Shown: piece by piece, positions 22,951 to 51,659 of the stretch
Position numbering within the stretch: position 1 is the first letter of the stretch
How the letters are laid out: every line of letters begins with the position of its first letter
Source of the DNA: an uncultured Acidobacteriota bacterium
GTDB lineage: Bacteria; Acidobacteriota; JAQAZP01
DNA length: 64,000 bases
NCBI GenBank assembly: GCA_963836075.1
Contig: CAWIIB010000009.1
Span: 3,330,442 to 3,394,441 of the forward strand
Reading direction: 5' to 3'
Program-made: the position numbers and the translations under genes
The notes under the pieces: model-generated
What the model was told of the DNA's origin: nothing
The model's database searches: none
What the model saw: only the letters and a program-made list of their open reading frames with translations

Positions 22951-24315
22951 TCAGCCTTTCATCCCGTATTTCGAGATCTTGTAGCGCAGGGCCCGTTCCG
23001 ATATCCCCAGCTTGCGGGCGGCGCGGGACTGCACGCCGCTGGCCGCGGCCAATGCCTCGGTGATGGCCGATTTCTCCATCGCCGCTACCCGGCCGGGCAG
23101 CGAGTCGTTCTCTTCGTCCTGCGGGGCGCCGTTCTCGTGGCGCGATCCCAGCACCGCCGGGGGAAGGTCGCCGGCGGTGATCTGGTTCCTGCGGGCCAGC
23201 ACCATGCCTCGTTGCACGGCGTTCTCCAGCTCGCGGACATTGCCCGGGAAATCGTAGGCGATCAGCAGGTCCATGGCCTCCCGGGAGATCGACGCGGCGG
23301 TGCCGTCTTCGCCGTGCTTGGACAGGAAGTGATCCACCAGCAGCGGAATGTCCGATTTGCGATTGCGCAGCGGCGGGATTTCAATATTCACCACGGCCAG
23401 CCGGTAGAAAAGGTCATCCCTGAAGTCGCCCTTTTCGATGGCCTCCGGCAGGTTGCGGTGGGTGGCGGCGATAACCCGCACATCCACCGGCACGGTGGTG
23501 TTGGATCCCACGCGCTCCAGGGATCTCTCCTGGAGCACCCGCAGCAGCTTGACCTGGACCTCTGCCGGCAGGTCCCCGATCTCGTCGAGGAAAATGGTGC
23601 CGCCGGAAGCAACCTCGAACCGCCCCTGCCGCTCGCGATCGGCCCCGGTGAACGCCCCCTTCTCGTGCCCGAAGAGCTCGCTCTCCAGCAACTGGCTGGA
23701 GAGGGCGCTGGCATTCACGGCCACGAACGGGCCGCCGGCCCGGGGGCCGGCCCCGTGAATCGCCCGGGCCACCAGTTCCTTTCCCGTGCCGCTTTCCCCC
23801 TGCACCAGCACCGAGACATCGGAGCGGGACACCCGGGAGATGAGGGAGAGCACCTCGCTCATCACCCCGCCGGCGGTGACGATGCCGGGCACCGACTCGA
23901 ACCTGGCCAGCCGCGCCTTGAGGTCAATGTTTTCCCGGTGCAGCCGGCGTGCATCCAGCAACCGTCGCACCAGGTGTTCCACCTCGTCCAGGTCCAGAGG
24001 TTTGAGCAGGTAGTCCGCCGCCCCCTGTTTGAGACAGGCCACCGCATCCTCCACCGTACCAAAGGCGGTGGCCAGGATCACGGCCACTTCGGGGTTGACC
24101 CGCTGGATTTCCTCCAGCAGATGGGTCCCGTCCATCCGCGGCATTCGGATGTCGCTGATACAGAGGTCCGGTGCCTGCCGCACCACGGCATCCAGTGCCT
24201 CCCGGCCGTCGCCGGCCTCGGTCACTTTGGCGCCGAGGTCGCGGAGAAAGCCTGCAAGTTCTTCGCGCTGGGAGCGGTCGTCGTCCACCACCAGAATGCG
24301 GGCATCGAGGTTCAT
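22951..24315 (-). CDS. sigma-54-dependent response regulator (NtrC family)
   Basis: Receiver domain (ILVVDDD...DLCISDIRMP), AAA+ sigma54-interaction domain (GESGTGKE, GAFTGA), C-terminal HTH. Confidence 0.9.
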   Translation of the reverse strand: MNLDARILVVDDDRSQREELAGFLRDLGAKVTEAGDGREALDAVVRQAPDLCISDIRMPRMDGTHLLEEIQRVNPEVAVILATAFGTVEDAVACLKQGAADYLLKPLDLDEVEHLVRRLLDARRLHRENIDLKARLARFESVPGIVTAGGVMSEVLSLISRVSRSDVSVLVQGESGTGKELVARAIHGAGPRAGGPFVAVNASALSSQLLESELFGHEKGAFTGADRERQGRFEVASGGTIFLDEIGDLPAEVQVKLLRVLQERSLERVGSNTTVPVDVRVIAATHRNLPEAIEKGDFRDDLFYRLAVVNIEIPPLRNRKSDIPLLVDHFLSKHGEDGTAASISREAMDLLIAYDFPGNVRELENAVQRGMVLARRNQITAGDLPPAVLGSRHENGAPQDEENDSLPGRVAAMEKSAITEALAAASGVQSRAARKLGISERALRYKISKYGMKG

Positions 24316-25943
24316 ACTGTTTCTCCGTCGCCGCCGGCGGGCAGCTTCAACCGGGCCAGCGCACCGCCATTTTTCCTGCTGCGCAGGGTCGCCGAACCGC
24401 CGTGTTCTTCAGCCACCCGCCGGACCAGGGCCAGACCCAGGCCAACACCGCCGGCCTGGTTGGTGACAAAGGCGTCAAACAGCTGCTCCGCCGTGGCGTC
24501 ATCCACCCCGGGGCCTTCATCCGACACGCCCACCTGGACGAACCCGTTCGCTGCCGTGGTCTCCACTCGAACCTCGCCGCCGGCCGGGCTGGCCTGGATC
24601 GCGTTGCGCACCAGGTTGATCAGCGAACGGCGGATCGACTCCGGGTCCACCGGGGCCGGACAGGGGGGGCCGGACAGGGTGAGGCGCACGCCGGTGGATT
24701 CGGCCTCGTCGGTGAGCAGCTCCACCACCTCACCGGAGATGACCCGGAGATCGGTCTGTTTCCTGGACCGGCCCACCGGGCTGGCCAGTTCGAGGAATTC
24801 GCGAAGAATCGCTTCCAGCCGTCCTATCTCGCCGCGGACCTTGGCCGCAAAACGACCCACATCGTCCTGCGGTGGGTGAGTCCGTCCGATACGCTGTGCG
24901 GCGAGGCTGATGGCGTTGAGCGGCGACCGCACCTCGTGAGCCAGGCCGGCGGTGAGGGCGCCGGCGGCCGCCAGCCGCTCACTGCGCCTCCGTGCCGTCT
25001 CCACCTCGGCCAGACGCCGGGCCGCCGCTTCACGCTCCACGGCGCGACTTCTGGTGAGCAGGGCGATGAAGACCAGGGCCAGACTGAACACGGAGAGCAC
25101 GATGCCCACCATGGCCGTCCGGCGCACCGCGGATGCCGAAGCCGCGGCCAGGGGCCGCCCGTCCATCCCCACCCGCAGCGATGCCTGAAAACCGGCCGGT
25201 GCGCTCACCGGTACCACCACCTCGTACACTTCGCGGCCGCGCACCGTGCGACGGCCGTCACCTGCGTCCAGTCCCGGCGGGATCGGTTCGCCATCCCAGC
25301 TGGCCTCCAGCGGCTCCCCACCCGGGGAGACGGTGTAGCCGAGGTAGAGCACGCCTCCGGACCCGGCCAGCCGTTGGAGCAGGTTGGCCGCGCCGATGGT
25401 GCCGGAGAAGGCGAGGTTTGACCGTGCGTGCACCCTGACGATTACAGCGCCGCCGTCGACTGTCCGCACCACAGCAGCGATGTGTTCCACGCCGTCTTCC
25501 ATCTGTGGCCCGAGGATCATCTCGTCGGCCTTTCCCTCGATCACTTCAACCGCCTGCCGGCGCAGCGCATCGGGAACCGGTGCTCCCACGGATACGCTCT
25601 GGCTGCCCGCCCGGTCGAGGTGGACGATGGAGTCGAGGTCGTTCTGTTCTGCCAGGGCACCGGCTGCAGCAGCGGTGAGGCCGCCGGATTGCTGCAGGAC
25701 GGCGAGAATCCGTGTGTTTTCAAGAACCTTGGCCGTGGAGGTCTCCTCGATCTCCCGGGCCGCGGTGGAAGCCGCTTCGAGGCCCGGACCGAGGGTGCGG
25801 GCGAGGAGAGTGGCCTGGGCGGCCAGCACCTCGGCGGTTTCCCGCCGCTGGTTACGCCCTTCGTGGATCGCCCATGCGGCCAGTGCCATGGCGAGCACCA
25901 GCAGCGGAATCATGGTCGTCAGTGTTCGGAGCCTTCTCAACAT
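24312..25943 (-). CDS. sensor histidine kinase
   Basis: N-terminal TM segment, periplasmic region, second TM; H-box ...LAHEVRSPLNAI...; HATPase_c region; ATGA overlap with regulator gene. Confidence 0.8.
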   Translation of the reverse strand: MLRRLRTLTTMIPLLVLAMALAAWAIHEGRNQRRETAEVLAAQATLLARTLGPGLEAASTAAREIEETSTAKVLENTRILAVLQQSGGLTAAAAGALAEQNDLDSIVHLDRAGSQSVSVGAPVPDALRRQAVEVIEGKADEMILGPQMEDGVEHIAAVVRTVDGGAVIVRVHARSNLAFSGTIGAANLLQRLAGSGGVLYLGYTVSPGGEPLEASWDGEPIPPGLDAGDGRRTVRGREVYEVVVPVSAPAGFQASLRVGMDGRPLAAASASAVRRTAMVGIVLSVFSLALVFIALLTRSRAVEREAAARRLAEVETARRRSERLAAAGALTAGLAHEVRSPLNAISLAAQRIGRTHPPQDDVGRFAAKVRGEIGRLEAILREFLELASPVGRSRKQTDLRVISGEVVELLTDEAESTGVRLTLSGPPCPAPVDPESIRRSLINLVRNAIQASPAGGEVRVETTAANGFVQVGVSDEGPGVDDATAEQLFDAFVTNQAGGVGLGLALVRRVAEEHGGSATLRSRKNGGALARLKLPAGGDGETV

Positions 25944-25971
25944 GCGCCTATTTTACGCCGTAAAGCCCCGT

Positions 25972-26579: not shown

Positions 26580-27050
26580 TTAGCGGAGAGCGAGCGCAAA
26601 GTCCTGAACCAGGGTCTCACCCTCGGCGACGGTCACCGGAGTCAGTTCGGTGGGCAGGTAGCCGCAGGCGCAGGCGCGCATCAGGTAGTCAGCGGCATCG
26701 AGGTTTTCAATGACATAGACGCCGTTGGCATCGGTCTCGACCCGGGTGGCCATTCCCGCGCCGCCGCCGTGGTAACCGCCGCCAAAACCACCGCCACCGC
26801 CGCTGCCGGATCCGCCGCCGCTGCCCCAGCCGTGGTCGCCGCCGTGGAACTGCGAGCCGCCGCCGCCGCTGCAGCCGTCCGCCGGGCGGATGGTCACGAA
26901 GGCTCCTTCGATGGGCAGACCGGTGTCCGCGTCGGTCACCGTGCCGGTGACCGTGGCTGTCTGGGCCATGGCGGTGGCGCCGGTCAGGGCCACGGCCGCC
27001 ACAAAGATGAGGGCAGTCTTGATCAGCGATGATTTCGTGAGTTTGAACAT
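26580..27050 (-). CDS. secreted carboxypeptidase-regulatory-like domain protein with Gly/His-rich insert
   Basis: Signal peptide; ...TATVTGTVTDADTGLPIEGAFVTIRP... and ...TDANGVYVIENLDAADY... flanking a GGGGSQFHGGDHGWGSGGGSGSGGGGGFGGGYHGGGAG insert. Confidence 0.5.
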   Translation of the reverse strand: MFKLTKSSLIKTALIFVAAVALTGATAMAQTATVTGTVTDADTGLPIEGAFVTIRPADGCSGGGGSQFHGGDHGWGSGGGSGSGGGGGFGGGYHGGGAGMATRVETDANGVYVIENLDAADYLMRACACGYLPTELTPVTVAEGETLVQDFALALR

Positions 27051-27300
27051 CTTCTCTCCTTTTAGCAGTTCACATGAATCCTTAAAATGATGAAAACCTT
27101 CTGATTGAGGCCCGATTCAAATCCTCCTTTCCCCCTGGTTTCAAACCGTGGTGGTATGGGCAACCCGTCAAATCGATCTCTGCAGTTGGTGTCGAGCCAT
27201 TCGTGATGACCGTGACACCAGATTCATGGAGCAAGAACCGTACCAGACGAAAACAAAGGACTTACGGGCGGGAATTCGACATTTCGGGCGGATGGCCGGG

Positions 27301-36509: not shown

Positions 36510-37453
36510 GCAAGCTGGCCGCAAGGCGGGCGGAGGCGCGGTCCGCTTCGCGCCGGCAGACGGTGCACCAGGTGACCATCAAGGGTGAGCTGGTCTCCAC
36601 GGCCACCCCGGAGGGGCAGCCGGTCTGCATGAAACTGAAGGACCTGCTGGGGCTGATCTCGACCCACGGGGATCGATCGCTGGAGACCGGAGGCCTGTTG
36701 CCCGACGGGGTCAAGCTGGTCCGGTCCCGGGGGCCGGTGACCGTCTGGACCTACCAGCGGCCACCCCAGGTGCACAACCTGAGGTGGATCGCCGCCGACT
36801 CTCCCGTGCCGTTCGGAAAGGGCAGCACCTACCGCTCGGTGCGTATCGCGCTGCCCTACCTGGTGGTGCTGGCCGTGTTTATCACCGGGAGGAACAACCG
36901 TCTGCAGCTGTCGCAATACAACGAGTGCTTTTTCCGCAACGAACCTCTGAAGAGTGTTGAGGACCAGCTGTTCTACCCGGCACTGCTCAACTGTTCGAAG
37001 TTCAACCCGCAGGAGGGGCACCCGCTTTCCTGGATCTGCACCGCAAATATGGACCTCAGGCGTCTGGGCCGGCTCCCGGACGAGAACGAACGGATGCGGG
37101 GCAGTATGAATGCTCTGCTGCACTGCCTGCTGGAAACCGGTTACAACCATTCCAGCGAACACCACGAGGAGACAAGCTGGTTCACCGAGTCCGCCACGGT
37201 GGACCCGCGGGTCGCCACCGTCGAGAGGTGGGAGCAGGCCACCGCCAAAGACAGTCTTTTCGTCCTTGACGTCCCCTGGCTCAAAACCGGCAGGAGCCTG
37301 GGGCAGGTGATCGAAAGGATATTCGACAATGCCGGCAGTTCCCGCGGACGGCTGGCCACTTCCAATGACCTGATGCGGCTGATGGCCAACAACAGCGAGC
37401 GGCTGCCGGCGAAGGAAGAAGCGCAGGGGGTATTTATCGATGAACTGTTCTGA
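36503..37453 (+). CDS. hypothetical protein (operon member)
   Basis: 316-aa ORF overlapping previous stop by 7 nt; contains a hydrophobic segment (LPYLVVLAVFI); no motif recognised. Confidence 0.4.
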   Translation: MLSKLAARRAEARSASRRQTVHQVTIKGELVSTATPEGQPVCMKLKDLLGLISTHGDRSLETGGLLPDGVKLVRSRGPVTVWTYQRPPQVHNLRWIAADSPVPFGKGSTYRSVRIALPYLVVLAVFITGRNNRLQLSQYNECFFRNEPLKSVEDQLFYPALLNCSKFNPQEGHPLSWICTANMDLRRLGRLPDENERMRGSMNALLHCLLETGYNHSSEHHEETSWFTESATVDPRVATVERWEQATAKDSLFVLDVPWLKTGRSLGQVIERIFDNAGSSRGRLATSNDLMRLMANNSERLPAKEEAQGVFIDELF

Positions 37454-38348
37454 GGACAGACTGCTCACGCCGATCTACCTGCGGACGAGCGAGGAGATGC
37501 ACTGGCCGGAGGACACGGTGTTTTACATGCTCACCGGCAGCGGTCTCTTTCTCTGCCGCAACAACGAGCACTTCCGCAGCTGTGTTCCGGCCCGCGGCTG
37601 GCCCGGGGAACTGCCCGGTCAGGAAAAGTTCCTCGATCTGCACTATCCCCGGCTGCCCCGGCGGCTGCTGGAACGGGCGGTGGGCTTTTTCGAAGCGGTG
37701 GGGCGCAAACACGATGCGGAAGCGGCACTGCTCCTGGCCTGGGACAGCGAGCGCGAGGTTTACCGCCTGGTGATTCCCCGGCAGCGTTGTACCGTGTACC
37801 TCAACTGGCAGGGGGACACCTCGCCCCAGGGCGTGCACTACGACCTTCCGGAACGCGTGCCCGAGACCTGGATCATTGTTGGCGACATCCACAGCCACGT
37901 CGATTTTTCGGCATACTCCTCGGCCACCGACCAGCACGACGAGCACTACCGCACTGGTCTGCACATCGTGGTGGGCCGCATCTACGACGAGCCGCCCCAG
38001 TTTCATGTGGAAGCCACGGTGGACGGTATGCGCTTTCCCGTCCAGCCGGAGGATATTTTCGAGGGCTACGATTCCCGGAGAAGCGATTTCCCCGAGCAGT
38101 GGTTCGACTGGCTGAAGATCGAACTCGGTTCCGCTTTCACATACTCGGACAGCAGCAAATGGAGTTCCGGCACTGGTTCCTCCGGCTGCAGCGGCCATGG
38201 CCACACGGCCTGTTCACCGATGCCGGCCCCCCGGGGCGGTACCACCGGTTATTCGGTCGCTCCGCTGGAAACGTATCGCAGTTCGGGAAACGGCGGGAAA
38301 AAGAAGGGCGGTGGCCGCAACCGTGACGGCCGGGGGAAACGTCGATGA
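37440..38348 (+). CDS. JAB/MPN (JAMM) metallopeptidase; candidate deubiquitinase/Ubl-processing peptidase
   Basis: Exact JAMM motif H-x-H-x7-S-x2-D in ...IVGDIHSHVDFSAYSSATDQHDE... with upstream Glu; Gly/Ser/Lys-rich C-terminal tail. Confidence 0.75.
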   Translation: MNCSEDRLLTPIYLRTSEEMHWPEDTVFYMLTGSGLFLCRNNEHFRSCVPARGWPGELPGQEKFLDLHYPRLPRRLLERAVGFFEAVGRKHDAEAALLLAWDSEREVYRLVIPRQRCTVYLNWQGDTSPQGVHYDLPERVPETWIIVGDIHSHVDFSAYSSATDQHDEHYRTGLHIVVGRIYDEPPQFHVEATVDGMRFPVQPEDIFEGYDSRRSDFPEQWFDWLKIELGSAFTYSDSSKWSSGTGSSGCSGHGHTACSPMPAPRGGTTGYSVAPLETYRSSGNGGKKKGGGRNRDGRGKRR

Positions 38349-39175
38349 GCGGGGTCGGGAGGGAACAGGTGGTTCTGATGCCCGCTCTGGCCGACCACAC
38401 GGCGGTCAAAATCATCGGTCTGGGCGGAGTGGGCGGCATCGTGGCCCGCTACCTGTCCATCTTCCTCGCCTCGCTGGACCGCGACCTGCGGCTGGTGCTC
38501 ATCGACGGCGACGAGTTCGAGCCGTCCAATGCCACACGGATGCTGTTCTCCGATCACGGCAACAAGGCCGCGGTCACTCGCGCCGAACTCCGGGAACGCT
38601 TTGCCGACACGTCCCTCATGCTGACTGCCGTGGAGCAGTATGTGAAGCCGGACAACATTCACCGCCTGATTCAGAATGATGACGTGGTCATCCTGGCCGT
38701 GGACAACCACGCCACGCGAAAGCTGGTCAGCGAGCACTGCCGGAGCCAGTTGAACGACGTGTGCCTGATCTCGGGGGGGAATGACGGCGTGGGCCCCGAC
38801 GGGTCGGGTTCCCGGCGGCGGGGCACATACGGCAACTGCCAGATTTATTTGCGCCGGGGCGGCCGGGATCTATGTCCCCCGATCACCCGGTATCATCCCG
38901 AGATCCGGGAACCGGCGGATCACAGCCCCGCCGAGGAGAACTGCACCGAACTGATCAAGTCGGTGCCGCAGATCCTGTTCGCTAACCTGGCCGCGGCATC
39001 GGCCATCCTCAACGCCTTCTGGCTCCATTGCTGCTCCGCGCTGCACTACAGCGAACTCAGCTTCGACATTGCCGATGGTCTGATGCGGCCCATGCCCCTG
39101 CCGGCCCCTCTCGTCATCGCGAGGAGCCCGAAGGGTGAAGCGGCGCTCTCTTCGGATGTCTTTCCGGTTCAATGA
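38345..39175 (+). CDS. E1-like ThiF/MoeB-family adenylyltransferase
   Basis: ATGA overlap with JAB gene; nucleotide-binding ...VKIIGLGGVGGIVARYL... and ...LIDGDEFEPSNATRMLF... motifs. Confidence 0.75.
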   Translation: MSGVGREQVVLMPALADHTAVKIIGLGGVGGIVARYLSIFLASLDRDLRLVLIDGDEFEPSNATRMLFSDHGNKAAVTRAELRERFADTSLMLTAVEQYVKPDNIHRLIQNDDVVILAVDNHATRKLVSEHCRSQLNDVCLISGGNDGVGPDGSGSRRRGTYGNCQIYLRRGGRDLCPPITRYHPEIREPADHSPAEENCTELIKSVPQILFANLAAASAILNAFWLHCCSALHYSELSFDIADGLMRPMPLPAPLVIARSPKGEAALSSDVFPVQ

Positions 39176-44721: not shown

Positions 44722-44922
44722 GGGTTTTCCCTTTCCGTTCGTTGACTATTACACTTTGTGACTGAGAGCGCGGATATTGTAGCACACCGTTTTTCATTCA
44801 GGGAATCCCGGCGCGCACATTTCGGGACCTGACCCCGAAAATGTGCACATGTCGTCCCCTGGCCTGGGGGTACGGAAAAAAGCCCGAACCGTTCCGATGA
44901 TCCGGGGCATTTTGAACTGCAG

Positions 44923-44950
44923 GGCCGGCGGTGATTGCTCACCGCCGGCC
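44923..44950 (-). terminator. GC-rich hairpin (12-bp perfect stem, 4-nt loop) 9 nt downstream of the tricorn-like gene stop
   Basis: GGCCGGCGGTGA-ttgc-TCACCGCCGGCC; weak U-tract. Confidence 0.35.
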
Positions 44951-44958
44951 ATTGTTGA

Positions 44959-47244
44959 TCAATAGTCGGATTCGGGCAGGCCCATTCCGGAGCGGTCGGG
45001 CCATGCGGGAACCGGGGCCGCCTTGAAAGCGCCGGTCTTCGCTTCCTCGATCATCTGTTCGATGGCCCGGTCCAGCTGCGGGTCACCGCCGTCCACCATC
45101 AGGGCCGGGTCATCCAGCACCTCGATGTCTGGATCCACGCCGTGGCCCTCGATGCCCCAGGTGCCGTCAATGTCGTAGAAGGCGAAGGACGGGGTGGTCA
45201 CGCCGGCGCCGTCCAGCAGCGGCGGGCCGCCGCCGATGCCCACCAGACCGCCCCAGGTGCGGGTGCCGATCAGCTTGCCCAGTTTGTTGTGCTTGAAGAG
45301 GTAGGGAAAGTGGTCCCCGCCCGATCCGGCCAGGCCGTTGATCAGCATGCACTTGGGACCGTGGTGCGCGTCCTGGGGCCAGACCACCTGGCCCTTGAGG
45401 TCACGGACCGACCAGTAGTTGGTGATCGGCCGGTTGAGCAGTTCGATGAAGCGGGTGGGCACCTGGCCGCCGCCGTTCCAGCGTTCGTCGATGATCAACG
45501 CTTCCTTCTCGATCTGGCCCACGAACTGGCGCACCAGTTCACTCTGGCCCTGGATGCCGGTATTGGGCACGTAGATATAGCCCACCTTGCCGCCCGATTT
45601 GCGGTCCACATACTGCCGGTTGGCTTCCACCCAGGCCCGGTAGCGCAGGTCGCCGTCGTTGCCCAGCAGCTCAACCAGCACCTGGCGGTCATTTTCACCG
45701 CTATTCGGCTCTTCGCTCACCGTCAGACGCACGGTCTGCCCGGCCTTGCCCACAAAGGAGGCCCAGGGGTCGCGATTCGTGTCCACCGGAACGCCGTTAA
45801 CCGCCAGCAGGTAGTCACCGACCTTGACGTCCACTCCGGGCTGGCTCAGCGGGCCGCGGGCATCCACGTCCCAGGGGCCGCCCTCGAGAATCAGCGAGAT
45901 GCGGTAAGCGCCGTCGTTCAACTCGAAGTCACAGCCCAGCATGCCGGTGGGCAGTTGGGGCGGGTTCTCGTTGTCACCGCCGAAGTAGTAGGTGTGGCCA
46001 ACGTTCAGCTCGGCGATCAGTTCGCGGAGAATGAAGCCCACGTCCTCGCGGGAGGTGCACTCCTCGATGAGCGGGGCATACTGCTCACGGACGGCTTCCC
46101 AGTTCAGGCCGTGCATGTTGGGGTCGTAGAAGAAATCGCGCTCGCGGCGCCAGACTTCGTTGAAGATCTGCCGCCACTCCTCGCGGGGGTTCACCGTGGC
46201 CAGCATGCCGCCGGTGGGAACCATCTCCTCCAGCTTCTGGTCCGCAGCGGCGTTGATGATCGCCATCGCCCCGCCCTCGTTGACCACCAGCAGCTTCTTG
46301 CCGTCGGCGGAAATGTCCACCAGGTTGACCCCGCCGGCCACCGTTTTGACCTTCTCCTTCTCGTCGTCGAAGTCGAAGAGGTGGATGGTGGGTGGCCCCT
46401 GGGTCCCGGGAGCCGGGGCCTTGGCAAAGATCAGCTTGTTTCCGTCGTTGACACAGAGGCCGAAGAAGGCGCCCTTGTCCATGGGCAGGGCGATGGCCCG
46501 CTGTTCGAACCCCTCGAGGTCTATTTTCAAGGGGTCTTCTTCCTCTTCCTCAGCTTCGCCATCCTTGTCCTTGTCTTCGCCCTCGTCTCCGTCCTTGGCC
46601 TCTCCGTCCTCCTTCTCATCGCCGTTTTCGTCCTTCTCCTCCTCGATCTCCTCGTCGTCGCTCTTCGGGGCCAGCGGGTTTTCCACGTCGGCGTTCAGCG
46701 GCACGGCGTAGAGCCGGTCGGTGGCGGTGTAGACCCAGGTGGTGTCCACGTCGGAGTAAATCGGACTGCTGAAGTCACGATTGCTGGCGAAAAAGAGAAA
46801 CTTGCCTTCACGGTCGAAAGTGGGCCAGGTGATGCCGAACATCGTGTCGGTCACCTGGTGCTTTTTACCGGCGGCCATCTCGTAGAGGAAGATCTGGTTC
46901 GGACCGCGAAGGCTGGTGCCGCGGGCCCAGGCCAGCCAGTTGGAGTCGTGGGACCAGCTGAGGCTGGTTGCTCCCGGGCCCAGCTGTTCCTCGATCACCT
47001 TCGCTTCCTTTGATTCAACATTGTAGAGATAGAGTTTGCCGCTTTTTTCCCAGAAGGCGATCCACTCGCTGTCCGGGGACCAGTTGGCCGCGAAGTAGTA
47101 GGAGGGCGGCAGGTCGGTGACCCTTTCCGCTTCAGCCGGAGCTGTCGGCGGCACTGATGTAGAGCTGGTATTCACCGGTCCCGTCGGAGAACCAGGCGAT
47201 CCACTTCTTGTCCGGGCTGAACGTCGGATAGCGCTCGGCGGCAC
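44959..47244 (-). CDS. tricorn protease homolog, C-terminal part (PDZ plus peptidase domains)
   Basis: Tricorn-like length; acidic linker; ...GLAGSGGDHFPYLF... and ...TWGGLVGIGG... catalytic region; upstream end overlaps 47132..48298 in another frame. Confidence 0.6.
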   Translation of the reverse strand: MPPSAIRRSARTRSGSPGSPTGPVNTSSTSVPPTAPAEAERVTDLPPSYYFAANWSPDSEWIAFWEKSGKLYLYNVESKEAKVIEEQLGPGATSLSWSHDSNWLAWARGTSLRGPNQIFLYEMAAGKKHQVTDTMFGITWPTFDREGKFLFFASNRDFSSPIYSDVDTTWVYTATDRLYAVPLNADVENPLAPKSDDEEIEEEKDENGDEKEDGEAKDGDEGEDKDKDGEAEEEEEDPLKIDLEGFEQRAIALPMDKGAFFGLCVNDGNKLIFAKAPAPGTQGPPTIHLFDFDDEKEKVKTVAGGVNLVDISADGKKLLVVNEGGAMAIINAAADQKLEEMVPTGGMLATVNPREEWRQIFNEVWRRERDFFYDPNMHGLNWEAVREQYAPLIEECTSREDVGFILRELIAELNVGHTYYFGGDNENPPQLPTGMLGCDFELNDGAYRISLILEGGPWDVDARGPLSQPGVDVKVGDYLLAVNGVPVDTNRDPWASFVGKAGQTVRLTVSEEPNSGENDRQVLVELLGNDGDLRYRAWVEANRQYVDRKSGGKVGYIYVPNTGIQGQSELVRQFVGQIEKEALIIDERWNGGGQVPTRFIELLNRPITNYWSVRDLKGQVVWPQDAHHGPKCMLINGLAGSGGDHFPYLFKHNKLGKLIGTRTWGGLVGIGGGPPLLDGAGVTTPSFAFYDIDGTWGIEGHGVDPDIEVLDDPALMVDGGDPQLDRAIEQMIEEAKTGAFKAAPVPAWPDRSGMGLPESDY

Positions 47245-48298
47245 CGCTGGTGCGGGTGAAGTTCACCGGCGAGCCGTTTTTGGCCGGCAAAGTCCAGACG
47301 TCGCCCCGGGCGCCCACGGCAACCCGTTTGCCGGTGGGGGAGAGGGAGCGGCTGAACAGCGATTCGGAGGCGTCCTTTATCTGGGGACGGATCTGGGGAC
47401 GGGCGCCGGGGATGGTGACCTGCACCGCAGTGCTGCCGCCACCGGCCAGGTCGAGCAGGCGCAGCTCGGCGCCCAGCTGGTAGACAATCTGGTTCGGGCC
47501 GATGGAAGGCCATTTCACGTCATAGGAGGCGTGGTCGGTCACCTGGGTGCGTGTGCCGTTCTTCGTATCGTAGGACCAGATGTTCAGCCGGTGTTCCGGG
47601 CCGTTGTCCGAGAGGTAGTAGAGGGTATCGCCGTGCCACATGGGGTAGGTGTCGGTACCTTCCCAGTCGGTGATCTTTTTGGAAGTGTTCTTCTTCAGGT
47701 TAATCAGCCAGATATCGGTGGCCATCCCGCCGCGGTAGCGTTTCCAGTTGCGGAAGTCCCGGGAGTGGGGGGTGTAGGCCAGCCACTTGCCGTCGTCGCT
47801 CACCGCGCCGTTGGCGCCGTAGGGCACCGGCATCTTTTCCGGCAGGCCGCCGTCCGCCGCCACCGTGAACAGCTCCCTGGTGCGGGGGTTGAGGCCGATA
47901 CCGCCGGCGTAAAAGATCAGTTCACCGTCCGGGGTCCAGTCGCAGAGCGTCTCGCCGGTGGGGTGGTGGGTCACCCGGAACGGTTCGCCGCCGGCCACCG
48001 GGATGGTGTAGAGGTCCTGGCCACCGTCGTAGTTGCCCATGAAGGCGATGGTCTTGCCGTCGGGACTGAACTTGGGGAATACCTCGCCCCCGGGCGGGCT
48101 GGCCAACGGCACGGCCGTGCCGCCGGTGACCGGGACCAGCCAGAGGTCATTGGAGTAGCGGAAGACGATATGCGAGTCACTGACATCAGGGAAGCGGATC
48201 ATTCCGGTGTCCGATGTTCCCGCCCAGGCCGTTGCCCCGGCCAGGGCCAGGATGGTGATCAGCAGGGGTATCCCTGTCCAGAACCGTTTTCCGCTCAT
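47132..48298 (-). CDS. tricorn protease homolog, N-terminal beta-propeller part with signal peptide
   Basis: RBS AAGGAGAG; signal peptide MSGKRFWTGIPLLITILALAGATAWA; PD40-type blades (...FSPDGKTIAFM..., ...SDDGKWLAYT..., ...FSPDKKWIAWF...). Confidence 0.6.
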   Translation of the reverse strand: MSGKRFWTGIPLLITILALAGATAWAGTSDTGMIRFPDVSDSHIVFRYSNDLWLVPVTGGTAVPLASPPGGEVFPKFSPDGKTIAFMGNYDGGQDLYTIPVAGGEPFRVTHHPTGETLCDWTPDGELIFYAGGIGLNPRTRELFTVAADGGLPEKMPVPYGANGAVSDDGKWLAYTPHSRDFRNWKRYRGGMATDIWLINLKKNTSKKITDWEGTDTYPMWHGDTLYYLSDNGPEHRLNIWSYDTKNGTRTQVTDHASYDVKWPSIGPNQIVYQLGAELRLLDLAGGGSTAVQVTIPGARPQIRPQIKDASESLFSRSLSPTGKRVAVGARGDVWTLPAKNGSPVNFTRTSGAAERYPTFSPDKKWIAWFSDGTGEYQLYISAADSSG

Positions 48299-48689
48299 CT
48301 GACGCTCTCCTTTGTTTGATGGCTCCCCGGCCCGATGGCGCCGCAACCCTGCGCCGCCACAGTTATGGGGGATCGTCACTCCCCAACCGCCGGCCGGCGG
48401 CCGGGAGTCGATTCGTAACATGAGTGAACATACACCGGAGTTCCGCACCCCAGGCTCCAGGCCGGAAGTCCGCTCTCACCCCGGTATTTCCCTTCTATAA
48501 CGCAGAAGGAAGCTCCAGGTTCCATTAATGATGGAACGTGTTTGTCTACTATATCAGCAGTTTACCCTGTGGGGATAGTGAAGCGGGGTTGGTTCAGGTC
48601 ATGGTCTATTGCTCCTCGCACCGGTCGCGTAACGCTCCGACGTCGCTCGGATGCAACAAAGCATGATCTGAACTCAATTTTTGGAGTAT

Positions 48690-49265
48690 TTACCAGGGGT
48701 TGAGGAAGACCTGGGTGAGGTGGTAAATGTTGCCATCCTTCCAGATACCCACGCCGGTCTCGCGGAATTCGGAAGTGAGGATGTTGGCCCGGTGCCCGTC
48801 GCTCTTCATCCAGCCGTCGATGGCCGTCTCCACCGGGTCGCTGAAGTTGATGTTCTTGGCGATGTTCTCCGCCACCAGGGCGAAGCGGATTCCTTCGGCG
48901 CGTAGCCGGTCGGCCACGTCGTTGCCGGCGGGATCAGAGTGGCCGAAAAATCCGAAACGGTTCATCCGGAAGCTGAATCCCCGTGAAATCCGGTTGAGGT
49001 CCTCGTTGGGCTCCAGGGGATCGAGGGCGTGAAACAGGCGGATGGCATTGATCTCTTCCAGCAGCCGCTGCTCCATGCCGGCCACCTCCTCAGACTGGGG
49101 TCCCCCTCCCGCCGGCCGGGTAATGGTGACCGCTTCGGCGGAGCGGCTGCTCAACTGGCTGTGGCTTCCCCCGGCCGACACGGGCGGGCCGGCCAGGAAC
49201 AGCGCTGCCAGGATCAGCATCGCTGCGGCCGAAACCATTCGGATCGGTTGTGCTCTATCGATCAT
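48690..49265 (-). CDS. CAP (SCP/PR1-like) domain secreted protein
   Basis: Signal-peptide-like N-terminus; ...GHRANILTSEFRETGVG...YHLTQVF... CAP signatures. Confidence 0.65.
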   Translation of the reverse strand: MIDRAQPIRMVSAAAMLILAALFLAGPPVSAGGSHSQLSSRSAEAVTITRPAGGGPQSEEVAGMEQRLLEEINAIRLFHALDPLEPNEDLNRISRGFSFRMNRFGFFGHSDPAGNDVADRLRAEGIRFALVAENIAKNINFSDPVETAIDGWMKSDGHRANILTSEFRETGVGIWKDGNIYHLTQVFLNPW

Positions 49266-49388
49266 CGATCCCTCCCAGTGACATTCCCTCTCTAATTTTG
49301 CCACAGGTGAGCGAATCCAGCTGACCGAAGTACAAAAAAAGGCCGCCGGAAGTTCCGGCGGCCGGCTGTCGGTTCCCGCTTCCCGGGA

Positions 49389-50279
49389 TTATTTCTGCTT
49401 CAACAGGACGTTGCCGCTGAAGGTGTTGATCTCTATCTTTCCGCCGCTCGACCCGGCCGGCGCATCCCAGTGCACGGTGCCCTTGCTGTACTCGTCGGAG
49501 ATGCCCTTCAGCCCGAACTCGTTGTTGATCTTGCCGCTGAAGGTATCCACCGAGAGCTCGGCGGCCAGGCTGCTCAGCAGGAAGACAACGTCTCCGCTGT
49601 GGGAATCCACCTCCACCCACACATTGCTGTCCAGGTCGATGTCGAACTGCAGGTTGCCGGAAACGGTTTCCGCGGTGAGGTTGCTGAACGTGCCGCCCTC
49701 CACCAGGAAGTCTCCGCTCACCGTGTTTCCGGACAGCCGGCCGCTGACACCGCGGAGGCGGATGTCGCCGCTGACACTGTCCACCTCTGTAATCGCCGAC
49801 TGGCATTCCAGGCTGATCTCGCCGCTCACCGTGGAGACCTCGGCCTCGCCGGAACCGCAGACCGCGGTGATGTCGCCGCTTACCGCCGCCAGTTCGATGT
49901 CACCGTCAAAATCGTTGAGTTCGATGTTGGCGCTAACCGTGGAGACATCAAGCGTGCAGTTGCTGGGCACGCTGATCACCAGGTGCGTCGGCTTGACGTT
50001 CCGCGATTGCTTGGGCAGCACCACTTCGATCTCCATCCGCGACGAGTCGCCGCTGATCCGCAGCTCTTCGGTGCCCTTGCCCAGGGTGCCGCTGACCTTG
50101 ACCTCGTTGCTGCCCCAGCCGGTGATCTTAACCGAACCACTGATGTTGGAGACCGAGAGGGTCGCTGAACTGTCCAGCGTCCGGGTCTCGTTGATTTCGG
50201 TCTGCGCCGCCAGGGGGGCGGCCATCAGCACCAGGATCACGCTCAGAGCCGCCGGGATCATCCACTTCATTCTGTTCAT
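49389..50279 (-). CDS. DUF4097-like repetitive beta-strand protein (putative adhesin, anti-sigma associated)
   Basis: RBS AAGGAGA; signal peptide MNRMKWMIPAALSVILVLMAAPLAA; repeated ...VSGDI.L... units; directly downstream of the anti-sigma gene. Confidence 0.55.
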   Translation of the reverse strand: MNRMKWMIPAALSVILVLMAAPLAAQTEINETRTLDSSATLSVSNISGSVKITGWGSNEVKVSGTLGKGTEELRISGDSSRMEIEVVLPKQSRNVKPTHLVISVPSNCTLDVSTVSANIELNDFDGDIELAAVSGDITAVCGSGEAEVSTVSGEISLECQSAITEVDSVSGDIRLRGVSGRLSGNTVSGDFLVEGGTFSNLTAETVSGNLQFDIDLDSNVWVEVDSHSGDVVFLLSSLAAELSVDTFSGKINNEFGLKGISDEYSKGTVHWDAPAGSSGGKIEINTFSGNVLLKQK

Positions 50280-50355
50280 CGTTTCATCTCCTTTATTTGC
50301 CAACATCATCTCGGTTATAAATGCTGTCATCTCAAATCGGTTTTATATCAACGGG

Positions 50356-51033
50356 TCACGACTCGCTGGCCATGCGGATCGCCCTTCCCTGGAGGGCCAT
50401 CTTTGCCCGGTAGGCCGAGGTGAGCAATCGGGTAAGGCCCGGTTCGTCCGGCGAGGCCACCCAGGCCGCCCGCGCTTCGGCGATGGCCCGGTCCACCACA
50501 GGCATGCTCTGCTGGAGCATATGACTCACCGGGCCGCTGTGGCCGTTGTATGATGCCAGTTCCTGCTCTCCCTGCTGGCACTCGGCCTCCAGGGCCAGCA
50601 GCACCGCATCGGTTTCCGGATAGTTCACCGCTCCGGCCGGCACACCGGTACGGGAAACGTCTTCCCCGGCAGGGACCAGCGGTTTGGTGTTGAACGACGA
50701 TATGCAGAGCACACCCACCACGGCCGCGGTGGCCAGGGCGGTGGGCCAGGACCAGCTAAAGAAGCCGAGGCGCCGCAGCAGCCTGGCGCCGTAGCTCTCC
50801 ACTGCCGCCTTCTTGGGCCGGGTCGCTTCGGCGATGGCCGGCCAGAGGTCCCGGGGCGGCTCGATGACCCGGGGCAGGGCAGCGGCCCCCTCTAGAACCT
50901 GCTTCAGCCCCTCCAGCTCGCGGCGGCAGGTCACGCACTGCCGGACGTGATTTTGCAGGTCCGTCACCATCGGGGCCTCCAGTACGCCGTCGATATAGTC
51001 GTTCAGGAGTTCAGCTGCACTATCGTGTTTCAT
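50356..51033 (-). CDS. anti-sigma factor (zf-HC2 type, single TM)
   Basis: N-terminal H-x3-C-x2-C (...HVRQCVTCRREL...); central hydrophobic segment; overlaps sigma gene stop. Confidence 0.6.
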   Translation of the reverse strand: MKHDSAAELLNDYIDGVLEAPMVTDLQNHVRQCVTCRRELEGLKQVLEGAAALPRVIEPPRDLWPAIAEATRPKKAAVESYGARLLRRLGFFSWSWPTALATAAVVGVLCISSFNTKPLVPAGEDVSRTGVPAGAVNYPETDAVLLALEAECQQGEQELASYNGHSGPVSHMLQQSMPVVDRAIAEARAAWVASPDEPGLTRLLTSAYRAKMALQGRAIRMASES

Positions 51034-51659
51034 GGCTTTACCTCCCGGACAGTTGTTTCCATTGCCGTGCGGAGCAGTTTCCGCGCCCGGTGCAGCTGGG
51101 CTTTGATAGTTCCCTCGGCCAGACCGGTGAGCGCCGCGATTTCACGGTGCCGGAACCCCTCCACGTCGTGGAGCACGAACGCGGTCCTGGCCCCGTGGGG
51201 CAGACGGGCCATCGCCCGTTCGAGATCCAGGGCCCGGTCCGGTTCGGTGCTGCTGGTGCCGCCGGCCCCGGCCTGCAGCAGGCTGTTGCCGTCCGCGGCC
51301 AGCCACTTCGACTCCCTTTTTCTGCTGCGCCGGTCCTCCAGCACCATATTCACCGTCAGCCGGCGGAGCCAGGCAGCAAAGGGGCCCTCGGCCCTGAACG
51401 AGTCGAGCTTGCGCCAGACCTTGACAAAGACGTCCTGGGTCAGCGATTCGGCCAGCGCCGGATCTCCGGTGATACGGAGACAGAGGGCGTATACCCGGCC
51501 GGCGTGCATCTTGTAGAGCGCTTCGAATGACCGGCTGTCGCCGCACCGGGCTCTGTTTACCAGTTCATTCACCGCCGGGTCCGCATCGTCGGCCAGCATT
51601 CTGTTCTCCGTTGCCGTGCCCAGGTCCATCAGGATCTCCCCGAAAATTTCCGTATTCAC
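51030..51659 (-). CDS. ECF-type RNA polymerase sigma-70 factor
   Basis: Sigma70 region 2 (...YALCLRITGDPALAESLTQDVFVKVW...) and region 4 (...AFVLHDVEGFRHREIAALTGLAEGTIKAQLHRAR...). Confidence 0.85.
   Translation of the reverse strand: MNTEIFGEILMDLGTATENRMLADDADPAVNELVNRARCGDSRSFEALYKMHAGRVYALCLRITGDPALAESLTQDVFVKVWRKLDSFRAEGPFAAWLRRLTVNMVLEDRRSRKRESKWLAADGNSLLQAGAGGTSSTEPDRALDLERAMARLPHGARTAFVLHDVEGFRHREIAALTGLAEGTIKAQLHRARKLLRTAMETTVREVKP

Follow-up and report, generated by a model that had tools for sequence, protein, structure and literature searches.

A predicted exported tricorn-family peptidase gene of an uncultured acidobacterium, probably cut by one supernumerary nucleotide and without functional tie to a nearby Ubl/AAA+ operon

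In archaea, tricorn protease takes oligopeptides as substrates at a step after the proteasome (PMC5473848), and its catalytic mechanism and propeller gating are described by Brandstetter et al. (2001), as cited in PMC3808539. In bacteria, a "tricorn protease homolog" has been detected in an extracellular proteome (PMC9054934). Here, we analyzed a tricorn-like gene on the minus strand of a 64,000-nt stretch of an uncultured Acidobacteriota contig (hereafter, the window), where the coding sequence is interrupted and an operon encoding ubiquitin-like (Ubl) and AAA+ components lies close by. We conclude with high confidence that this is one bacterial tricorn-family gene with a predicted exported product, cut by a single supernumerary nucleotide, and that it is functionally unconnected with the Ubl/AAA+ operon.

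Two minus-strand ORFs, 47132..48448 and 44959..47244, overlap in different frames, as the first-pass annotation had stated in describing a tricorn homolog split by a frame switch. Frame A ends in ...GEYQLYISAADSSG-TGA, the stop occupying 47134..47132, and frame B, shifted by one base, reads ...AEAERVTDLPPSYYFAANWSPD..., both exactly as first noted. The gene start is supported at ATG 48298 by the N-termini of homologs and by a Shine-Dalgarno-like AAGGAG read from the sequence 8 nt upstream (48307..48312, minus strand). From this start, the 5' part of the gene (47132..48298, minus strand; 388 codons and TGA in frame A) covers the signal peptide, all of the first beta-propeller and roughly 1.5 blades of the next, an assignment that also draws on the secondary structure of a relative's model; it matches Pfam PD40 and DPPIV_N, and its counterpart in Thermoplasma tricorn spans residues 42 to about 395. 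The 3' part (44959..47133, minus strand; codons 389-1112 and the stop in frame B) encodes the remainder of propeller 2, followed by the C1, PDZ and S41 catalytic domains. By itself it matches PDB 1k32 with E 2e-74, and its translation and the DNA alignments to relatives contain zero internal stops and zero additional frameshifts.

Just past the stop codon lies a terminator-like hairpin with a 12-bp GC-rich palindromic stem (44923..44950, minus strand), and beyond it another with a stem and T-run (44906..44883, minus strand), both pattern matches only in a region where the terminator consensus scan gave 9 sites against 4.0 +/- 2.0 expected. A sigma-70 promoter scan of the locus returned no site, and when the entire window was scanned for Rfam families and tRNAs there was no match, hence neither a taxonomic marker nor an RNA element at the junction. 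Control of the tricorn gene by an ECF sigma factor, considered on account of the upstream sigma, anti-sigma, DUF4097 and CAP genes, was dropped; no function was assigned from this cluster because it is conserved only in the four closest relatives.

The tricorn identity proposed in the first-pass annotation stands on several lines of evidence. Tricorn_C1 (PF14684; residues 704-762, 46012..46188, E 1.1e-23), PDZ_Tricorn (PF14685; residues 785-873, 45679..45945, E 8.6e-26) and Peptidase_S41 (PF03572; residues 904-1060, 45118..45588, E 1.2e-20), all on the minus strand, score above the Pfam cut-off, and residues 33-1087 of the restored protein align colinearly with PDB 1k32/1n6d (HMMER, E 2e-84). 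In Foldseek, the monomer model of the closest same-length intact relative (87% identical), used in place of the window protein itself, aligned to 1k32 with TM 0.80/0.87, compared to about 0.2 for every other structure. NCBIfam has no tricorn model and gave sub-threshold TolB and Ctp matches only. Removal of one base yields the complete five-domain tricorn architecture; in the recorded sequence, translation stops after residue 388.

The catalytic residues, located by counting positions in the HMMER alignment with 1k32, are all conserved: the nucleophile Ser992 (45322..45324), His768, equivalent to Thermoplasma His746 (45994..45996), Glu1050 (45148..45150) and the oxyanion Gly944 (45466..45468), all on the minus strand and invariant in 56 homologs. 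The oxyanion hole of the Thermoplasma enzyme is formed by Gly918 and the backbone amide of residue 966; the Gly918 equivalent is Gly944, and position 966 is Gly instead of Asp, a side-chain change that is tolerated because the contribution comes from the backbone amide. We take Ser992, His768 and Glu1050 to play the roles of Thermoplasma Ser965, His746 and Glu1023 (Brandstetter et al. 2001). Elsewhere, Glu116/Thr117 (in a low-confidence propeller-1 alignment) occupy the positions of Arg131/Arg132, and Ser963 that of Asp936. In the Thermoplasma enzyme, Arg131/Arg132 clamp the substrate C-terminus and Asp936 is the P1 specificity residue; changes at these positions concern specificity, not family membership. 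Given that Arg131/Arg132, Asp936 and Asp966 are not conserved, substrate preference may thus differ from that of the archaeal enzyme. Propeller 2 additionally contains an acidic low-complexity loop (residues 545-588, KSDDEEIEEEKDENGDEKEDGEAKDGDEGEDKDKDGEAEEEEED, 46534..46665, minus strand), which varies family-wide from 31 to 94 aa with about 51% D/E among the 56 aligned homologs and has pLDDT <50 over 545-586 in the relative's model.

The N-terminus carries a predicted Sec signal peptide of the signal peptidase I type (residues 1-26, MSGKRFWTGIPLLITILALAGATAWA/G, 48221..48298, minus strand), with the n/h/c layout readable as MSGKR, a hydrophobic core and AWA/G, and with no lipobox Cys. This layout is kept in close relatives, and in a heuristic count, 111 of the 120 best homologs had a signal-peptide-like stretch immediately ahead of the conserved mature N-terminus, so that the signal peptide noted at first sight is upheld by both layout and conservation. 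Judging from these sequences, a predicted Sec-type signal peptide is the norm in the large bacterial tricorn clade, and the protease is predicted to be exported and to act outside the cytoplasm.

Taken together, the interval very probably represents one gene for a 1112-residue exported tricorn-type S41 serine peptidase, comprising, in order, a Sec signal peptide, a six-bladed-type propeller, a seven-bladed-type propeller with a disordered acidic loop, C1, PDZ and S41. By analogy with the Thermoplasma enzyme, the propellers would filter oligopeptides and guide them to a buried Ser-His site, and peptides would be trimmed in an extracytoplasmic location, either the periplasm or the medium. Because of the extra base at 47134/47135, codon 388, which lies within a blade of propeller 2, is followed by a TGA; from the sequence as it stands, the exportable product would consist of the signal peptide and a propeller stump only, and the catalytic part lacks both a signal peptide and a ribosome-binding site.

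The break itself can be located precisely. According to alignments with intact relatives, of both protein and DNA, the switch falls between Gly388 (GGC 47137..47135) and Glu389 (GAA 47133..47131), where the continuity of homology changes frame at ...DSSG/EAERV..., so that the original estimate of about 47125-47140 proved right and a single extra nucleotide falls inside it. This nucleotide is T (47134) or, equally, C (47135) on the minus strand and makes the TGA at 47134..47132: the window has GGC-T-GAA, and relatives have GGC-GAA or GGT-GAA. Every relative aligned at the DNA level (L001/L024, L002, L003, L004 and L006) shows a 1-nt gap at the junction column; among the indels of this 3.3 kb gene, it alone has a length not divisible by 3. 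When the junction was searched with a degenerate pattern that tolerated 1 or 2 bases, only two contigs matched (L058 and L059), both with normal spacing, and overall the extra base is missing from five to seven related contigs representing at least 4 species. The exact junction pattern, with or without the extra base, had no match in the genome and metagenome contig collections searched; these contained no near-identical genome for an independent check of the base, and no identical protein was on record for the 388-aa product, the 761-aa product or the neighboring PPIase, so that no independent assembly of the same strain turned up. Once the base is removed, the resulting 1112-aa protein is 82-89% identical to the intact 1094-1114-aa proteins P0001-P0005 over 99-100% of its length, and chance is ruled out because on both sides of the junction the frames match a single uninterrupted protein of relatives at 82-89% identity. 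The junction falls in propeller 2, in the loop that follows strand 377-382, away from domain borders (alignment and model). No second frameshift-suspect ORF pair was detected in the window, the other same-strand overlaps, of 4-22 nt, being accounted for by ordinary start codons.

Pairwise dN/dS is 0.13-0.15 in both halves versus 0.12-0.19 among intact relatives, and the window-specific nonsynonymous/synonymous count is 17/48 overall and 10/31 downstream of the break, the latter no higher than in relatives, indicating no relaxed constraint in either half. Thirteen syntenic flanking genes align essentially end to end in one piece with those of relatives, as do three regulator genes past an insertion of ~12 kb, such that 16/16 comparable flanking genes are intact. 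The lack of relaxed constraint, along with the intact flanking genes, therefore points to a consensus error or a very young mutation; in other words, the break is either evolutionarily very young or absent from the organism. Under the single-gene explanation, we give an assembly or consensus error a little better than an even chance and a genuine recent null mutation a little less than one. Homopolymers are the commonest context of indel errors, and because the extra base is outside any homopolymer, a real mutation is quite plausible; a merged C/T wobble polymorphism would fit a consensus error, as relatives have GGC or GGT and the window GGCT. Annotators should join the two ORFs into a single gene flagged as frameshifted, or correct the sequence, rather than record a PD40 protein and an S41 peptidase.

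Other readings of the break are far weaker. The two ORFs could be separate functional genes, for an exported 388-aa propeller protein and a cytoplasmic propeller-PDZ-S41 peptidase initiated at an internal GTG (47244, 47175 or 47154). Neither half has degenerated, in-frame GTG codons do occur upstream of the junction in the 3' ORF, and the one at 47154 overlaps the 5' ORF by only 23 nt, like other gene pairs in the window. However, none of the three GTGs is preceded by a Shine-Dalgarno sequence, unlike ATG 48298, the break falls within a propeller blade and not between domains, and the catalytic half, having lost the signal peptide, would end up in a different compartment from the 5' half. Moreover, all relatives have a single polypeptide, and no split half was found among the best 120 homologs, all of which are 1094-1261 aa long, including the few with partial BLAST coverage. 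We consider two genes very improbable.

Even less probable is programmed +1 ribosomal frameshifting at GGC-UGA-A, which would produce the full-length protease and regulate its level. The prfB-type RF2 autoregulatory site involves a +1 shift at an in-frame UGA, and the shift needed here has the same geometry, but GGC-UGA-A is not slippery, re-pairing of tRNA-Gly with GCU would mismatch at the middle position, and no Shine-Dalgarno-like stimulator was found in the sequence upstream of the junction. Furthermore, programmed sites are conserved, and none of the relatives examined has this arrangement.

A reading of comparably low probability concerns function: the protease would be a post-proteasomal partner of the Ubl/AAA+/JAB/ThiF operon or, in a variant, the frameshift would move its catalytic part to the cytoplasm for use by that system. 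The tricorn gene lies 5.8 kb from this eight-gene operon, which includes ThiF-like E1s, an AAA ATPase with a proteasomal-ATPase OB domain and a JAB peptidase, and the partnership would match the position of the archaeal enzyme downstream of the proteasome (PMC5473848). Yet the operon lies on the other strand and is separated from the tricorn gene by five unrelated genes, and it is on the window-specific ~12 kb segment missing in L002, L004 and L006, where the flanks are otherwise syntenic and ADI is directly followed by the CarboxypepD_reg, HisKA and sigma54-activator genes. Homologs of the eight operon genes were found within 10 kb of a tricorn homolog at 0 of 57 loci. Because the operon is on an insertion that three related species lack and occurs in no tricorn locus examined, the proximity is best regarded as coincidental. 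In addition, the signal peptide is conserved across the tricorn clade, and a catalytic fragment would probably fail to fold if it lacked propeller 1 along with 1.5 blades of propeller 2. The insertion pattern and the 57-locus survey largely refute the partnership, and the view of the first-pass annotation that the signal peptide argued against direct coupling is strengthened by them. Least credible of all is that a real, fixed extra base yields an exported stump and a signal-less cytoplasmic peptidase (by reinitiation at GTG 47154 or a low-level +1 shift at GGC-UGA), newly available to the Ubl/AAA+/JAB module acquired on the ~12 kb insertion, although, if true, this would capture in evolution the moment when an exported peptidase is redirected to a cytosolic degradation pathway.

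Thus, in our favored interpretation of a single interrupted gene, the presence of the tricorn homolog does not point to a proteasome-like pathway at the Ubl/AAA+ operon: the latter was acquired independently, on a lineage-specific insertion, and the tricorn is a predicted exported enzyme of a very large bacterial clade. Nor would this protein be a tricorn in the archaeal functional sense, that is, cytoplasmic, post-proteasomal, working with the F1/F2/F3 aminopeptidases and tied to proteasome or AAA+ machinery, given its conserved signal peptide and the lack of conserved operon linkage. The archaeal system also assembles into a homohexameric toroid and an icosahedral capsid; the model considered here is of a monomer. 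As for the biochemistry of the exported clade with its conserved acidic loop, the window adds nothing special.

Among known systems, the C-terminal processing peptidases (Prc/Tsp, CtpA/CtpB, D1 protease; S41A) have the PDZ and S41 core in common with the window protein and are also exported, but contain neither propellers nor Tricorn_C1 and score orders of magnitude weaker than tricorn. Ctp-type matches were weak but significant for 1fc7 (E 4e-4) and far below cut-off for TIGR00225 and the CtpA/B/C models. These peptidases use a Ser/Lys dyad, not Ser/His. With Thermoplasma acidophilum tricorn (PDB 1K32, 1N6D-F; MEROPS S41 tricorn subfamily), the window protein shares the propeller-propeller-C1-PDZ-S41 order along with the nucleophile Ser, His, Glu and oxyanion Gly. 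The differences are a sequence identity of only 24%, an N-terminal Sec signal peptide and a predicted location outside the cytoplasm, not with the proteasome and F1-F3, a 44-residue acidic disordered loop in propeller 2 where Thermoplasma has about 10 residues, the lack of conservation at the equivalents of Arg131/Arg132, Asp936, Asp966 and Ser745, and the frameshift in the window gene. The first-pass description of tricorn as classically archaeal does not hold for current databases: a search that gave 7451 matches at E<=1e-10 among 8000 candidates scored had exclusively bacterial named sources in its best 120. Such bacterial tricorn homologs or PD40-PDZ-S41 proteins, from Latescibacterota, Eisenbacteria, Acidobacteriota, Phycisphaerae and related uncultured lineages, have the same architecture at 55-89% identity over the full length and share the signal peptide and the acidic loop with the window protein, the closest (P0001-P0005, L004 and L006) being 82-89% identical and encoded in a syntenic neighborhood. 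All are intact single ORFs, and the extra base occurs in the window copy alone.

On the minus strand, the tricorn-protease homolog is spread over two long ORFs, 47132..48448 and 44959..47244, that lie in different frames. Its start was placed at ATG 48298 because the equivalent Met forms the N-terminus of all close homologs in the protein alignment, and a strong SD-like element, AAGGAG, lies 8 nt upstream. The 5' frame ends in ...GEYQLYISAADSSG-TGA, with the stop at 47134..47132, whereas the 3' frame (+1 shift) reads through the same bases as ...AEAERVTDLPPSYYFAANWSPD...; the overlapping frames and the switch between them are as the first-pass annotation described, with both translations matching exactly. 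Deleting one nucleotide between GGC (Gly388) and GAA (Glu389) restores a 1112-aa protein that reads YQLYISAADSSGEAERVTDLPPSYYFAANW across the junction, compared with YQMYIGAADGSGEAEKVTDLPPSYYFAANW in the close homolog P0004, in an unbroken alignment.

Searching about 5.8 billion proteins (8000 candidates scored, 7451 matches at E<=1e-10), we found that the best five matches (P0001-P0005, 1094-1114 aa) cover 99-100% of the query at 82-88% identity. The homologous genes on related contigs (L001/L024, L002, L003, L004 and L006), which represent at least four species, share 84-88% DNA identity with the window and are all intact ORFs. Aligned to the window, each of them shows a one-base gap at the junction column, and the remaining indels in the 3.3 kb DNA alignment are all multiples of three; a degenerate scan of a metagenome collection, allowing either spacing, yielded two further contigs, and in each of these the spacing is normal. 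At this site the window reads GGC-T-GA and the relatives GGC-GA or GGT-GA, and therefore either C (47135) or T (47134) is supernumerary. Exported bacterial tricorn-type peptidases are a well-populated known family, and this is one gene with one extra base, a new member that is frameshifted in the record. The closest relatives are labelled inconsistently (Acidobacteriota, 'Spirochaetaceae', uncultured bacterium), so that the lineage is poorly classified.

For pairs including the window, pairwise dN/dS is 0.13-0.15, whether in the 5' or in the 3' part, compared with 0.12-0.19 among the intact relatives. Among codons that differ in a single taxon, with a shared amino acid in the other four, the window accounts for 17 nonsynonymous and 48 synonymous changes of its own (10 and 31, respectively, downstream of the break), ratios at the low end of those of the relatives, and no second lesion occurs in the 724 codons downstream of the break. 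All 13 flanking syntenic genes compared (among them ADI-like, two ABC-F, BrxC-like, cyclophilin, CAP, DUF4097, anti-sigma, ECF sigma, UDP-glucose dehydrogenase and NFACT-R) can be aligned with their orthologs over essentially the full length without a change of frame; three regulator genes further on also align with those of the relatives. Since these flanks are intact and no other frameshift-like same-strand ORF pair was found in the 64 kb, the assembly is not generally indel-ridden; given also the lack of a further lesion or relaxation, the lesion is either a local error in the consensus or a mutation of very recent date.

The Gly388 wobble position (codon 47135-47137, minus strand) is C in L002 and L006 and T in L004 and L024, and in the window the two stand side by side, as GGCT. 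A C/T polymorphism that was mis-resolved in a mixed population would look like this; it is the pattern expected if a strain polymorphism had entered the consensus as an insertion. Because the site lies outside any homopolymer, a true insertion stays plausible, and no independent copy of the window strain turned up in the genome, metagenome and protein collections searched. Granted a single extra base, we put an artefact slightly above even chances and a genuine young null allele slightly below.

Programmed +1 frameshifting at the UGA would also yield the full product and has the right geometry, but GGC-UGA-A is not slippery, a stimulator is absent and the site is not conserved in the relatives. 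A functional split into two genes is also disfavoured. The junction corresponds to Thermoplasma residues ~395-396 and, in the AlphaFold model of P0002, a homolog of equal length and 87% identity (pLDDT 75.8, pTM 0.68), falls in a loop after strand 377-382, inside a blade and well within the second propeller, which starts near residue 313; a break away from any domain border argues against such a split. In addition, no SD precedes the internal GTGs of the 3' ORF, leaving it without an RBS, and split homologs are absent among the matches listed. The catalytic 3' part as recorded lacks a signal peptide, which would place the two halves in different compartments. As recorded, the gene would give an exported product that ends 1.5 blades into propeller 2, after the signal peptide and propeller 1.

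The N-terminus runs from MSGKR through a hydrophobic core to AWA|G, contains no Cys and resembles a signal peptidase I substrate in its layout. By a heuristic, 111 of the 120 best homologs show this layout ahead of the conserved mature N-terminus (…GM[IL]R[FY]PDVS); the other nine look like mis-called starts. A 'tricorn protease homolog' was reported in the extracellular proteome of Pseudoalteromonas phenolica, 12-fold higher in high salt (PMC9054934). The layout and this homolog point to an extracytoplasmic role, and by homology the intact protein would most likely degrade oligopeptides there, its propellers gating access to a buried Ser-His site and a PDZ domain also being present; the general gating idea for tricorn is cited in PMC3808539.

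The Ubl/AAA+ operon lies on the opposite (plus) strand, its end 5.8 kb from the tricorn stop, and includes ThiF (29944..31191), AAA with a proteasomal-ATPase OB domain (34340..36127), Prok-JAB (37440..38348) and a second ThiF (38345..39175). L002, L004 and L006 share synteny with the window over the stretch that runs from NFACT-R and UDP-glucose dehydrogenase, past tricorn, to the ADI-like gene, which is directly followed there by the CarboxypepD_reg, histidine kinase and sigma54-activator genes (window orthologs 26580..27116, 24312..25952 and 22951..24408). The window therefore carries a lineage-specific segment of ~12 kb (about 27.2-39.25 kb), absent from these three related species and syntenically flanked on both sides, which looks like an insertion or island. 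It contains the whole operon, a GC dip to 0.535 at 28-30 kb and a 422-aa minus-strand ORF with no Pfam match (27343..28611). In 57 tricorn-homolog loci, taken with flanks of up to 10 kb, none of the operon's eight proteins has a homolog (E<=1e-10). Coupling of the peptidase to the Ubl system is thus disfavoured by the segment, these loci and the signal peptide, and the proximity is coincidental; the first-pass annotation's prediction of a signal peptide and its argument against direct coupling both hold, removing a misleading association.

Nine nt after the tricorn stop, 44883-44950 holds a perfect 12-bp GC-rich palindromic hairpin (GGCCGGCGGTGA-TTGC-TCACCGCCGGCC) and then, on the minus strand, a second stem-loop with a T-run; together they probably form a bidirectional or tandem terminator. 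Upstream on the minus strand, 51030..51659 encodes an ECF sigma factor, 50356..51033 a zf-HC2 anti-sigma factor, 49389..50330 a DUF4097 protein and 48690..49304 a CAP/SCP-domain protein whose N-terminus has a hydrophobic segment. Only the four closest relatives keep this cluster (48690-51659) beside the tricorn gene, so control of the protease by envelope stress is a possible but unsupported reading. The opposite strand carries, 6.7 kb upstream, the gene for a 982-aa Peptidase_M28-domain protein (55010-57958, plus strand), another large and probably exported peptidase, which did not appear in the flanks of the relatives. The 64 kb contain no tRNA genes and no Rfam families at the gathering threshold. 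The useful outcome is an annotation correction for the frameshifted gene.

The assignment to tricorn, also proposed at first pass, is borne out by domains, alignment and fold. Pfam identifies PD40 repeats in the 5' part and Tricorn_C1 (1e-23), PDZ_Tricorn (9e-26) and Peptidase_S41 (1e-20) in the 3' part; residues 33-1087 of the restored protein are colinear with 42-1060 of Thermoplasma acidophilum tricorn (1k32/1n6d; E 2e-84), and the P0002 model matches 1k32 at TM 0.80/0.87 (E 1e-63), compared with about 0.2 for every other PDB chain. The second propeller contains a predicted-disordered acidic loop of 44 residues (46534-46665, minus strand); all 56 aligned bacterial homologs have a loop there (31-94 aa, median 48, about 51% Asp/Glu), whereas Thermoplasma tricorn has about 10 residues. 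Counted along the HMMER alignment, Thermoplasma Ser965, His746, Glu1023 and Gly918 map to Ser992, His768, Glu1050 and Gly944, which are invariant among 56 homologs, giving the catalytic-residue mapping to tricorn. In contrast, Asp966, Ser745 and Asp936 are replaced by Gly, Gly and Ser, and Arg131/Arg132 by Glu/Thr in a low-confidence stretch of the alignment. The roles of these residues in tricorn were reportedly described by Brandstetter et al. 2001, and because the latter set is not conserved, the substrate specificity of the bacterial protein may differ from that of the archaeal enzyme.
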